The notes below the pieces were generated by a model. That model was not told the DNA's origin. It searched no databases and saw only the letters and a list, made by a program, of their open reading frames with translations. DNA of 64,000 bases, taken from assembly GCF_044324785.1 (NCBI RefSeq), contig NZ_CP172127.1; one strand, given 5' to 3'. Shown here in pieces: positions 36,829 through 43,075 of the stretch (position 1 is the first letter of the stretch; every line of letters begins with the position of its first letter). Both the position numbers and the translations under genes were made by a program. The DNA is from Escherichia coli (GTDB lineage: Bacteria > Pseudomonadota > Gammaproteobacteria > Enterobacterales > Enterobacteriaceae).

Positions 36829-37632
36829 ATGAACGCATTATTAACCAATCCCTTTAAAGAACGTTTACGCAAGGGCGAAGTGCAAATTGGTCTGTGGTTA
36901 AGCTCGACTACTTCTTATATGGCAGAAATTGCCGCCACTTCCGGTTATGACTGGTTGCTGATTGACGGGGAGCACGCGCCTAACACCATTCAGGATCTTT
37001 ATCACCAGCTACAGGCGGTAGCACCCTATGCCAGCCAACCCGTGATCCGTCCGGTGGAAGGCAGTAAATCGCTGATTAAACAAGTCCTGGATATTGGCGT
37101 GCAAACTCTACTGATCCCGATGGTCGATACTGCCGATCAGGCACGTCAGGTGGTGTCTGCCACGCGCTATCCTCCCTACGGTGAGCGTGGTGTCGGGGCC
37201 AGTGTGGCACGGGCTGCTCGCTGGGGACGCATTGAGAATTACATGGCGCAAGTCAACGATTCGCTTTGTCTGTTGGTGCAGGTGGAAAGTAAAACAGCAC
37301 TGGATAACCTGGACGAAATCCTCGACGTCGAAGGGATTGACGGCGTGTTTATTGGACCTGCGGATCTTTCTGCGTCGTTGGGCTACCCGGATAACGCCGG
37401 GCACCCGGAAGTGCAGCGAATTATTGAAACCAGTATTCGGCGGATCCGTGCTGCGGGTAAAGCGGCTGGTTTTCTGGCTGTGGCTCCTGATATGGCGCAG
37501 CAATGCCTGGCGTGGGGAGCGAACTTTGTCGCTGTTGGCGTTGACACGATGCTCTACAGCGATGCCCTGGATCAACGACTGGCGATGTTTAAATCAGGCA
37601 AAAATGGGCCACGCATAAAAGGTAGTTATTGA
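36829..37632 (+). CDS. rhmA: 2-keto-3-deoxy-L-rhamnonate aldolase (HpcH/HpaI family), 267 aa
   Basis: ORF track; translation recognised as RhmA. Confidence 0.92.
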
Positions 37633-37672
37633 TATCAAAGGCCCATGGGGATCGGCTGTGGGCCTGTGTTAA

Positions 37673-37846
37673 TTAGTGGTTATTCGCTGCCAGATCGGCT
37701 TCGCTTAGCTGGGTGGCCGCGAGCACCAGGTCACGATCAATGCCCTGTTCCAGCATGCGCAAAGCAATTTTAATGGCTTGTTCATGCATGCCTTCCTGCC
37801 AGCCAATTTGGTGTCCTTCCTGCCGTAGCCGTTCAGCAATAGTCAT
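37673..37846 (-). CDS. ypaA: Small protein YpaA, 57 aa, homologous to the C-terminal tail of RpnB (RpnS-like, DUF4351)
   Basis: Manual translation [60 protein letters not shown] near-duplicate of the rpnB 3' end; below the 60-aa track cutoff. Confidence 0.7.
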   Translation of the reverse strand: MTIAERLRQEGHQIGWQEGMHEQAIKIALRMLEQGIDRDLVLAATQLSEADLAANNH

Positions 37847-37858
37847 TAATCTCTCCTT

Positions 37859-38818
37859 TTAATAACAGTTCGGAATATCAGCATCAGTGAGTTGGGTTGT
37901 CGCCAGCACAATCTCACGTTCAAAGCCCTGTTCCAGCATGCGCAAGGCAATTTTAATGGCTTGTTCATGCATACCTTCTACTTTGCCTTTCTGCAAACCC
38001 TCCAACTTCCCCTCCTGCCAACCTTCAATCTTACCCTCCTGCCAGCCAATTTGATGCCCTTCCTGCCGCAGCCGTTCAGCAATAGTCATTAATCTCTCCT
38101 TTTGTAGTGGTGAACGTTCGGCAATCTCCTCAATAAAACGGGTGAAACGGGAGGTATCGCCGCATTGCAGCAGATAATTAAACAGCGTTTGTAGCTGGCT
38201 GTCATTAGTGAAGCCTCTAACCAAAAGCGTGGTGATCCTGTCGACCATACCGATTAAATCGCGGTCGCGAATATGCTTTTGAATCAGTTCAAGCAGAGCT
38301 ATACGCCGATGTTGCATGATCTCATCGTCAGGTACGATGGTGATATCCACCAACGGAAAAGCTTCGGTGTACAACTGCCGGGCAAGTTGCGGATCGTCAA
38401 ACTCATCCAGCCAGTTGAGTGAGTACGGGTAAGGCGAGGTTTCGCCATGATAAAACAGCAACGGCACCACCAGCGGGACTCTGTCATAGCCTTTGTCCAG
38501 GTGACGCTGCATGGCGGCAGTGGCATAGCGCATTAGCCGAAAAGCCATATTCTTTTCTGCAGAGCTTTGATGTTCAATCACGCAGTAGATATAACCGTCA
38601 CCGTCGCTGGTTTCCACGGACCACAAAACATCCGAGTAGTAAGCGCGTAAACTTTTTTCAATAAAACTGGTGGGTTCCAGGCGTAAGGTTTGCAGGTTAC
38701 AAAGCTTGCGCAGTGGTTCTGGTAAATGTATTTCGAGAAAATCCCGTGCGGTTTCGGGTGTGAACATAAAAGTTTTAAATACCGCATCATGCGGGGAGGA
38801 GGTTGTTGATTCGGTCAT
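37859..38818 (-). CDS. rpnB: Rpn-family (YhgA-like, PD-(D/E)XK) recombination-promoting nuclease RpnB, 319 aa in longest frame; true start may be the internal MFTPET methionine
   Basis: ORF track; transposase_31-like N-terminal domain; C-terminal GWQEG-K-x-EG repeats followed by an RpnS-like tail. Confidence 0.85.
37985..38060 (-). repeat. In-frame tandem peptide repeat ([23 protein letters not shown]) in the rpnB C-terminal region
   Basis: Plus strand shows reiterated ctcctgccagcc / cttccc units; translation shows repeated (W)QEGK(I/L)EG. Confidence 0.6.
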
Positions 38819-38964
38819 GGTTGTCCGTCACCTGATATTTATGATGACGCGACATTACGGTTATCCCAGGCCTTTGACATCTGCCAGTTTCAGCCTTTGC
38901 GAGACGTTTTCAGAGGAATTTTCACTGCGTTGCAACGCATACATTGGGCACGGAATCGTGTACG

Positions 38965-38999
38965 CAAAAATGCCCGGTAACCACATGCTTACCGGGCAT
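38965..38999 (-). terminator. Rho-independent terminator downstream of glpC (end of glpABC)
   Basis: Minus strand: perfect hairpin atgcccggtaa-gcatgtgg-ttaccgggcat followed by TTTTT. Confidence 0.75.
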
Positions 39000-39010
39000 C
39001 AGAAGGGAGT

Positions 39011-43075
<4,065 letters not shown>

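Follow-up and report, generated by a model that had tools for sequence, protein, structure and literature searches.

The Escherichia coli rpnE–ypaA locus: a predicted nuclease gene with a putative internal-start inhibitor and a stand-alone duplicate

All five rpn genes of Escherichia coli K-12 contain internal initiation sites (Meydan 2019, bioRxiv 10.1101/520783), and the small RpnS proteins are intragenic antitoxins that block the toxicity, SOS induction and nuclease activity of the long RpnL forms (Zhong 2023, PMC10400941). For RpnA_L/RpnA_S and RpnC_L/RpnC_S (Zhong 2023; PDB 7TH0), a PD-(D/E)xK nuclease is joined at its C-terminal side to a three-helix domain, and an internal start, as at rpnE, also yields this domain by itself. 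Four-residue repeats lie in helix 1 of RpnA and RpnC, beginning 8-20 residues past the initiating methionine. These repeats vary by strain in rpn genes and set the specificity of L/S pairing; RpnC_L is blocked only by an RpnC_S of equal repeat number, and one extra repeat abolishes neutralisation (Zhong 2023, PMC10400941), a rule that comes solely from RpnC and from a one-repeat difference. Similarly, in a comparison taken from the same study, the number of four-residue TAEL repeats in a helix of the EcoR124I and EcoR124II specificity subunits alters allele specificity, although there the repeat sets DNA-target spacing whereas the Rpn repeat is proposed to set protein-protein pairing, and the proteins are unrelated. 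RpnA, RpnB and RpnC, but not RpnE, have been demonstrated to be toxic, to act as nucleases and to be neutralised. Unlike K-12 rpnA and rpnB, rpnE is followed by a duplicated copy of its own 3′ region. In K-12 the pair rpnE (yfaD, b2244) and ypaA (b4543) has been described as rpnE_LS/rpnE_Ss, with ypaA as a second translated copy whose tagged protein was detected and with ribosome profiling data for the locus (Fig. 2E of Zhong 2023, PMC10400941). The biology of rpnE–ypaA is already published (Meydan 2019; Zhong 2023).

The window, by which we mean the whole 64,000-nucleotide stretch of E. coli DNA analysed here, contains what is by its sequence this same locus: a predicted nuclease gene with a putative internal-start inhibitor and a stand-alone duplicate (Table 1). 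The initial annotation had called the large gene rpnB, and this name has to be replaced. The encoded protein shares only 61% identity with K-12 RpnB, whereas it is identical to K-12 RpnE (b2244) at 296 of 299 residues outside a single 20-residue indel and scores 710.8 bits against the rpnE equivalog model NF007418 (cut-off 583). Its flanking genes are glpC and yfaU, as they are for K-12 rpnE. We assign the gene to rpnE because of this synteny, the equivalog match and the identity to b2244. K-12 RpnB (YfcI, b2305) is a paralog that shares its domain architecture and the internal start MTIA(E/D)RLR with the window protein; its gene, at 2.42 Mb, adjoins hisP and yfcH rather than glpC and has neither a repeat array nor a downstream ypaA-like open reading frame (ORF). 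Between K-12 and the window the rpnE locus agrees in its chromosomal position, in its N-terminal domain (three substitutions in total), in the Shine-Dalgarno sequence and start at M244 and in the 12-nt spacing to the downstream duplicated ORF. The two differ in extra four-residue repeats (5 in RpnE and 0 in YpaA in the window strain, 0 and 1 in K-12), in the YpaA tail (IDRDL in the window, FDRDQ in K-12) and in the substitutions L107Q and P155L, which the window allele lacks.

Table 1. Positions of the rpnE–ypaA features in the window, with the basis for each
Feature	Position	Strand	Basis
rpnE (yfaD) coding sequence, long form RpnE_L, 319 aa	37859..38818	-	ORF; NF007418; K-12 RpnE identity; named rpnE by PGAP in other genomes
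Transposase_31 / PD-(D/E)xK nuclease domain, residues 8-209	38192..38797	-	Pfam PF04754, E = 8.5e-88
Duplicated segment, copy 1: Shine-Dalgarno, start codon and tail coding region in rpnE	37862..38103	-	Self-comparison and alignment
Shine-Dalgarno AAGGAG, 6 nt upstream of the internal ATG	38096..38101	-	Read from sequence (acaaaAGGAGagattaATG)
RpnE_S, 76 aa, in-frame ORF from M244, HTH_Rpn_C domain	37859..38089	-	ORF list; precomputed PF27070 on identical 319-aa proteins
Array of six 12-nt units, five four-residue repeats above the K-12 rpnE allele	37973..38044	-	Tandem Repeats Finder, codon reading, alignment
Duplicated segment, copy 2: same Shine-Dalgarno (37853-37858) and start, no extra repeats, 3′ third diverged	37673..37860	-	Self-comparison and alignment
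ypaA (rpnE_Ss), 57 aa, free-standing HTH_Rpn_C protein	37673..37846	-	ORF; PF27070 on the exact protein
GC-rich hairpin, probable bidirectional terminator between convergent ypaA and yfaU	37639..37665	.	Minus-strand RNA fold, -12.1 kcal/mol, z = -2.5

The duplication itself is far beyond chance. About 188 nt of the rpnE 3′ end recur downstream as ypaA, which begins 12 nt past the rpnE stop codon with a Shine-Dalgarno sequence and start identical to the internal ones of rpnE. Self-comparison returned two direct repeats, 37781-37860 against 38024-38103 (90% over 80 nt) and 37694-37795 against 37877-37978 (84% over 102 nt), and global alignment of the two copies, which the initial annotation had proposed as a check on their boundaries, gave 155 of 178 positions identical (87%) and a single gap of 60 nt, the length of five 12-nt units. 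A further extension of the duplication upstream of the Shine-Dalgarno sequence (ATTGCCGAACGTT against ATT-CCGAACTGTT) is suggestive only, its score being equalled by 61 of 5000 shuffles. The claim that the tail of the large gene is duplicated directly downstream as a 57-aa ORF is thus confirmed by the ORF and the alignment. Indeed, the proposal that ypaA is a free-standing copy of its neighbour's internal-start product agrees with both earlier studies (Meydan, bioRxiv 10.1101/520783; Zhong, PMC10400941), and a protein identical to this YpaA adjoins a 319-aa RpnE in all 10 of the places listed.

The 13-residue start of YpaA had also been said to recur in frame inside the large ORF, and it does so at M244, whose ATG occupies 38087-38089. 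At the annotated rpnE start the Shine-Dalgarno-like context is weak; the strong Shine-Dalgarno sequence and ATG at M244 would allow separate translation of the C-terminal domain as the 76-aa RpnE_S. Translation from the M244 site, like that of YpaA, has been demonstrated in K-12 only (Zhong 2023, PMC10400941; Meydan, bioRxiv 10.1101/520783). The repeats of the window RpnE_S begin at residue 16. Its domain is HTH_Rpn_C (PF27070, formerly DUF4351), and a profile of the tails matches the RpnA-S structure (PDB 7TH0, E = 3.9e-8). The AlphaFold monomer of RpnE_S is a low-confidence model (mean pLDDT 66.5, below 50 at residues 22-35, which form the repeat region), and its top Foldseek match, again 7th0, with a probability of 0.99 but E = 0.26, is weakly supportive. 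Designer pentatricopeptide-repeat (PPR) proteins were the top PDB sequence matches; these are an artefact in which the score sums many weak matches, every single stretch having E > 8.

Within 37600-39020 the hairpin beyond ypaA is the only terminator-like site, and a scan of this interval for sigma-70 consensus promoters found none, including upstream of the internal start and of ypaA. Nor did the sequence of this interval reveal the internal transcription start that K-12 is reported to have. Transcription is inferred from the K-12 data (Zhong 2023, PMC10400941). A search of the whole window against Rfam gave no match.

The initial annotation described reiterated peptide units near the C-terminal end of the large protein and suspected that their number varies by strain. 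Both observations hold. Tandem Repeats Finder reported a 24-nt period at 37991-38044, which in codons resolves into six 12-nt units, and comparison across isolate genomes revealed 0, 1, 3, 4, 5, 6 or 8 extra repeats in RpnE tails; YpaA-like database proteins carry 0-8. Thirteen isolate haplotypes were distinguished by their numbers in rpnE and ypaA: (5,0), (0,1), (5,1), (3,0), (5,2), (3,1), (8,1), (6,2), (8,4), (8,6), (4,4), (0,4) and (1,4), of which (0,4) and (1,4) are present in complete genomes. Four more, (0,5), (2,5), (6,5) and (0,3), came from exact-protein look-ups and were left out of this census; they occur almost only in short-read metagenome or draft assemblies and may be assembly swaps between near-identical copies. 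The (0,5) haplotype was found in no complete genome, where the best match reached 93.8%. The two numbers are unequal in 12 of the 13 haplotypes, including those of the window and of K-12, and only (4,4) is equal. An earlier form of this result, that the numbers are never equal and that selection acts against matching, fitted the first 10 haplotypes until (4,4), which occurs in several isolates, refuted it. Under the observed marginal distributions chance would yield about 0 or 1 match in 13, and we therefore claim no avoidance.

These numbers bear on the role that the initial annotation gave to YpaA, an extra, free-standing dose of antitoxin restraining the adjacent Rpn nuclease. YpaA and RpnE_S do belong to one domain family, PF27070, and are identical over their first 19 residues and a central 16-residue segment; ypaA lies directly 3′ of rpnE with no terminator between them, which makes co-transcription probable, and the (4,4) haplotype has near-identical arrays. 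In the other 12 haplotypes, however, the repeat numbers differ, where a single extra repeat was enough to abolish RpnC neutralisation (PMC10400941), and YpaA departs from RpnE_S at 13 of its last 38 residues. Moreover, a large share of complete genomes appears to do without a separate ypaA (about 42%), and our literature search turned up no report in which YpaA was tested on RpnE. We therefore regard an extra-antitoxin role as unlikely. With 5 repeats against 0, the window's YpaA and RpnE_L do not share the repeat number that the rule borrowed from RpnC would call for in a cognate antitoxin, and YpaA is probably not the cognate inhibitor of its neighbour. Given the matched (4,4) haplotype, YpaA may nevertheless pair with RpnE_L in some strains.

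Alternatively, ypaA might be a non-functional remnant of the duplication, a pseudogene fragment, which is how RefSeq and EcoCyc annotate it. K-12 b4543 bears a pseudogene annotation, PGAP labels the gene 'incomplete; missing N-terminus' in most genomes, and its apparent absence as a separate gene from some 42% of complete genomes would fit a dispensable relic. The reading frame tells otherwise. Every sampled genome with the two-gene form keeps an intact ypaA ORF and its strong Shine-Dalgarno sequence, every change in ypaA length is a multiple of 12 nt, and the non-repeat codons of ypaA have a pN/pS of 0.17 (19 synonymous against 11 non-synonymous polymorphisms), the same as the rpnE tail (0.16). 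This pattern of polymorphism indicates that ypaA is evolving under purifying selection. In addition, the tagged protein and ribosome profiling from K-12 (Zhong 2023, PMC10400941) speak against a relic, as does Escherichia fergusonii, which keeps the two-gene arrangement. A pseudogene is accordingly an improbable reading of ypaA.

The gene was matched in 5420 of 5426 complete E. coli genomes, always on chromosomes and in no plasmid, and all loci inspected lie between glpC and yfaU. A 105-nt junction probe detected the two-gene junction in 3133 genomes, while in 2254 only its 35-nt start segment matched; about 42% of complete genomes thus appear to carry one fused gene instead of rpnE and ypaA, a split read from matches to this single probe rather than from genome-by-genome inspection. 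For example, CFT073 and two other genomes have fused single genes that end in the ypaA-type ...LAANNH tail. The fused gene is probably the derived state, because the two-gene form is also found in E. fergusonii. The same survey speaks to a further reading, suggested by database names, in which the locus is a mobile element whose repeats mark transposon ends or target duplications: Pfam names the N-terminal domain Transposase_31, and the NCBIfam product name, used in RefSeq, is 'ISNCY family transposase'. Against these names stand the chromosome-only distribution and constant position just described, the lack of inverted repeats in 37600-38900, direct repeats that are in-frame coding duplications rather than element ends, and the report that rpn genes have neither terminal inverted repeats nor target-site duplications (Zhong 2023, PMC10400941). 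We give this last reading hardly any credence.

The nuclease half of RpnE appears complete. The PF04754 match takes in positions 1-202 of the 203 in the model, over the N-terminal ~200 residues of the window protein. The residues that Kingston 2017 mutated in RpnA are D11, D63, E82, Q84, R94 and D165; positions 1-256 of the RpnA model align to window residues 1-256 without offset. All six are invariant in an alignment of window RpnE, K-12 RpnE, K-12 RpnB and CFT073 RpnE. By this alignment, the PD-(D/E)xK domain of RpnE_L retains all the residues that RpnA activity needs. However, K-12 RpnE, in contrast to RpnA to RpnD, was neither toxic nor able to induce SOS or promote recombination, and so scored as inactive in each of the three Kingston 2017 assays (PMC5350276). 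A toxic nuclease, as the initial annotation had it for the Rpn family, is therefore not established for this paralog. L107Q and P155L are confined to the K-12 lineage, and one of them falls at a position where the RpnE and RpnB sequences compared show no other variation. Natural rpnE alleles like that of the window may thus be active toxins, with the 'inactive' label of K-12 RpnE reflecting these two substitutions. PADLOC (2023) returned no defence-system match except a marginal 'putative invertase'.

Taken together, we think it very probable that the chromosomal rpnE–ypaA locus is a member of the family of Rpn nucleases with intragenic antitoxins, operating as follows. Tandem duplication of the tail, together with its Shine-Dalgarno sequence and start codon, created ypaA 12 nt downstream, and gain and loss of 12-nt units change the number of helix-1 repeats independently in the two copies. 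By extension from what has been published on RpnA, RpnB and RpnC, RpnE_S would bind the identical domain of RpnE_L and keep the nuclease off until a trigger, possibly phage infection, with the repeat number governing the choice of partner between S and L forms. Our own addition is that the cognate partner in the window strain would be RpnE_S and not YpaA, because RpnE has five extra repeats and YpaA none; YpaA would most likely pair with itself rather than with RpnE_L. We further propose that selection maintains ypaA as a translated gene, and that it could double as a second tail: deletion between the direct repeats would swap out the resident tail and leave the fused single gene found in many complete genomes. 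More tentatively, and with less confidence than in the family assignment, YpaA might, in the window strain as in 12 of the 13 haplotypes, be no spare antitoxin for its neighbour but a separately selected protein with another role, a suggestion linked to that of active natural rpnE toxins. Under the published rule YpaA could not pair with an RpnE_L of different repeat number, because the numbers differ. One possible role is that of a stored alternative tail, swapped into rpnE by direct-repeat deletion or conversion, so that the locus would be a cassette system for L/S specificity; another is inhibition of other rpnE alleles or of a phage factor.

This analysis rediscovers a published system, and it mainly shows that sequence alone is enough for a reader to pick out a nested gene together with its duplicate. 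What it adds are the 5/0 repeat numbers of the window, the comparison of 13 haplotypes, the pN/pS value of ypaA, the apparent share of fused genomes and the K-12-lineage substitutions L107Q and P155L. A gene annotated almost everywhere as a pseudogene proves, by its polymorphism, to be under purifying selection, and the usual difference in repeat number between ypaA and the resident rpnE tail calls into question the simple view of ypaA as an extra antitoxin. In fact, the sole RpnE assayed so far is that of K-12, with its two lineage-confined substitutions, so that the view of RpnE as an inactive paralog may not extend to natural alleles like that of the window.

On synteny, score against the NF007418 family model and near-identity to K-12 RpnE, the large gene is identified as rpnE (yfaD), and the name rpnB used in the initial annotation is wrong. 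Indeed, its flanks in the window are glpC and yfaU, exactly as at K-12 b2244, whereas K-12 rpnB adjoins hisP. The protein scores 710.8 bits against NCBIfam equivalog NF007418 (cut-off 583), scores under the cut-off of the RpnA model, is identical to K-12 RpnE at 296 of 299 positions with one 20-residue indel excluded, and shares 61% identity with K-12 RpnB; PGAP names the matching gene rpnE across many complete genomes. Pfam places Transposase_31 (PF04754) over residues 8-209 (E = 8.5e-88), and residues D11, D63, E82, Q84, R94 and D165, which matter in RpnA by mutation (Kingston et al. 2017), are all kept in the alignment. The RefSeq/PGAP label for rpnE, "ISNCY family transposase", conflicts with the published function of the rpn genes.

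Coordinates of features at the rpnE-ypaA locus (window positions)
Feature	Position	Strand	Remark
yfaU (rhamnonate aldolase gene)	36829-37632		convergent with ypaA
Hairpin	37639-37665		between ypaA and convergent yfaU; sole terminator-like site in 37600-39020
ypaA ORF	37673-37846	minus	57 aa, exactly the peptide quoted in the initial annotation
ypaA start codon	37844-37846	minus	ATG
rpnE (yfaD) ORF	37859-38818	minus	319 aa
Internal start M244 of rpnE	38087-38089	minus	ATG, in frame; same start peptide as YpaA
rpnE codon 155	38354-38356		
rpnE codon 107	38498-38500		
glpC	39011-40276		rpnE neighbour

The C-terminus of RpnE consists of a repeat array followed by a non-repeat tail. Tandem Repeats Finder gave a 24-nt period at 37991-38044, and at the codon level the array comprises six 12-nt units, in keeping with the reiterated peptide units first described there. 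Two companion claims, that the 3′ region is duplicated downstream as ypaA and that the same start peptide lies in frame inside the large gene, also held, the latter at M244. In a global alignment, the rpnE tail and ypaA agree at 155 of 178 positions, and the one gap, of 60 nt, has the length of five 12-nt units; the segments 37781-37860 and 38024-38103 (90% over 80 nt) and 37694-37795 and 37877-37978 (84% over 102 nt) match one another. The identical 14 nt AAAAGGAGAGATTA precede both the internal ATG and the ypaA ATG, with AAGGAG 6 nt from each start codon; the context of the annotated rpnE start is much weaker. Only 12 nt separate the rpnE stop codon from the ypaA start, and the last two bases of that stop codon fall within the duplicated segment. 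Across 37600-39020, a consensus scan found no sigma-70 promoter and a terminator scan no candidate site between the two genes; over the full 64 kb of the window, no Rfam family reached its gathering score. As read from its sequence, the locus shows directly a predicted nuclease domain whose catalytic residues are intact, a C-terminal domain that can be translated separately, and a tandem duplicate of that domain. Homology between the copies seems to reach about 20 nt upstream of the common Shine-Dalgarno (ATTGCCGAACGTT versus ATT-CCGAACTGTT), and therefore the last residues of RpnE, IPNCY, would be left over from an out-of-frame copy of the EIAERSPLQ segment encoded just upstream of M244, marking the tandem-duplication junction. 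Support for this is modest, the upstream homology (37859-37885 versus 38104-38130) being equalled in score by 61 of 5000 shuffles.

Retapamulin ribosome profiling gave peaks at in-frame internal starts in five of five rpn genes, and the internal product of rpnE resembles that of ypaA (Meydan et al., bioRxiv 10.1101/520783). The RpnS proteins arise as separate products and bind the long forms, whose toxicity, SOS induction and nuclease activity they block; RpnA-S is dimeric and folds as a three-helix bundle, the four-residue repeats lie in the first helix and vary widely in number among strains, and RpnC_S with one extra repeat does not neutralise RpnC_L unless RpnC_L has the same extra repeat (Zhong et al. 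2023, PMC10400941). The same authors described ypaA as a second RpnE_S copy (rpnE_Ss) whose tagged protein is detectable. Therefore the proposals that ypaA is a free-standing copy of an internally started small protein and that repeat number is strain-variable, the second confirmed by our genome comparison, were already in print (Meydan et al.; Zhong et al. 2023). The window carries one more allele of an already known system, and the reading given in the initial annotation largely restates published work.

Both tails carry PF27070 (HTH_Rpn_C) in precomputed Pfam annotation of identical proteins, and a tail-derived profile matches the RpnA-S crystal structure 7TH0 (E = 3.9e-8). The AlphaFold model of RpnE_S, the 76-aa product from M244, is of low confidence (mean pLDDT 66.5, below 50 in the repeats), and its best Foldseek match is again 7th0 (probability 0.99 but E = 0.26). 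Matches of the helix 2-3 segment (RpnE_S residues ~38-67, window ~37889-37978) to designer pentatricopeptide-repeat proteins in the PDB were rejected as a scoring artefact, since the very low whole-protein E-values arise from many weak, individually insignificant stretches summed; this is worth recalling when reading PDB sequence-match tables.

In RefSeq/PGAP annotation, ypaA is a pseudogene fragment that abuts rpnE: it is marked as a pseudogene in K-12, and most genomes label it "incomplete; missing N-terminus". Over 57 non-repeat codons in 31 distinct ypaA alleles, we counted 19 synonymous and 11 non-synonymous polymorphisms, a pN/pS of 0.17 from counts that ignore phylogeny; the rpnE tail gave the same value (0.16), and conversion between copies could carry polymorphisms across. 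No sampled two-gene genome has a disrupted ypaA ORF or Shine-Dalgarno. These intact signals, the low pN/pS and the published protein detection argue for a functional ypaA, and the pseudogene label conflicts with the published function and with purifying selection here.

Matches to the 1.3-kb region occur in 5420 of 5426 complete E. coli genomes, every time on the chromosome, with matched lengths that vary in multiples of 12 nt. We scored the extra four-residue repeats as (RpnE, YpaA) pairs at the locus in 17 complete genomes and in contigs from an exact look-up of YpaA variants. The pair is (5,0) in the window, strain N3 and others, (0,1) in K-12 and (8,4) in an ST131 strain; isolate genomes also gave (5,1), (3,0), (5,2), (3,1), (8,1), (6,2), (8,6), (4,4), (0,4) and (1,4). 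From these 13 differing pairs, the two arrays change independently. The idea that the numbers never match is refuted by (4,4), the one equal pair among the 13 isolate haplotypes, a count not below chance expectation. The pairs (0,5), (2,5), (6,5) and (0,3) come almost exclusively from short-read metagenome or draft assemblies, (0,5) being absent from all 5,426 complete genomes; we left them aside as possible mis-assemblies that swap the two near-identical copies, a caution for any repeat census using draft data. YpaA-like proteins in a large protein collection span 57 to 89 residues in four-residue steps.

By analogy with the RpnA, RpnB and RpnC experiments, RpnE_S would pair with the identical domain of the 319-aa long form, RpnE_L, and hold the nuclease inactive, with repeat number setting the specificity of pairing. 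In the window, YpaA has no extra repeats versus five in RpnE_L and differs from RpnE_S at 13 of the 38 last residues, which suggests that it would not be the cognate partner; it more likely pairs with itself. We found no published test of YpaA against RpnE. YpaA may also double as an alternative tail, which a deletion could install in rpnE. A separate ypaA is missing from three of the sampled strains, CFT073 among them, and their rpnE ends in the ypaA-type ...LAANNH, which is the fusion by deletion between direct repeats described by Zhong et al. (2023). A 105-nt probe that runs from the end of rpnE through the spacer into the start of ypaA was covered at least 80% in 3133 complete genomes, and only its 35-nt start segment matched in 2254 others, giving a probe-based estimate of roughly 58% two-gene and 42% fused genomes. 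E. fergusonii has glpC, a 319-aa rpnE and a 65-aa ypaA, and its 76-aa RpnE_S, which ends in NCY, has the same protein sequence as that of the window; by this comparison the two-gene form is old and the fused form probably derived. On the other flank in E. fergusonii, a short IclR-like ORF and a MoCF_biosynth gene replace the rhm genes. In strain UTME-10 (NZ_CP157104.1), rpnE is cut by an IS2 element and annotated as missing its C-terminus, with a short piece of the tail coding region beyond the insertion.

Over-expressed RpnA to RpnD, so named with RpnE by Kingston et al. (2017, PMC5350276), raised RecA-independent recombination, killed recA cells and induced SOS, whereas RpnE showed no activity in any of the three assays. 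The K-12 MG1655 protein (locus L002, 4905-5804) carries L107Q and P155L, both absent from the window and every other sampled allele, and P155 is invariant in the RpnB and non-K-12 RpnE sequences compared. The exact K-12 61-mer round codon 155 is found in 356 complete genomes; the 25 that were listed are without exception K-12 laboratory derivatives or strains labelled as laboratory or evolution-experiment ones, and the window version occurs in 4534 genomes. Because the two substitutions are confined to K-12 among the sampled alleles, at a position otherwise invariant in the case of P155, the lack of activity reported for RpnE may be peculiar to the K-12 allele.
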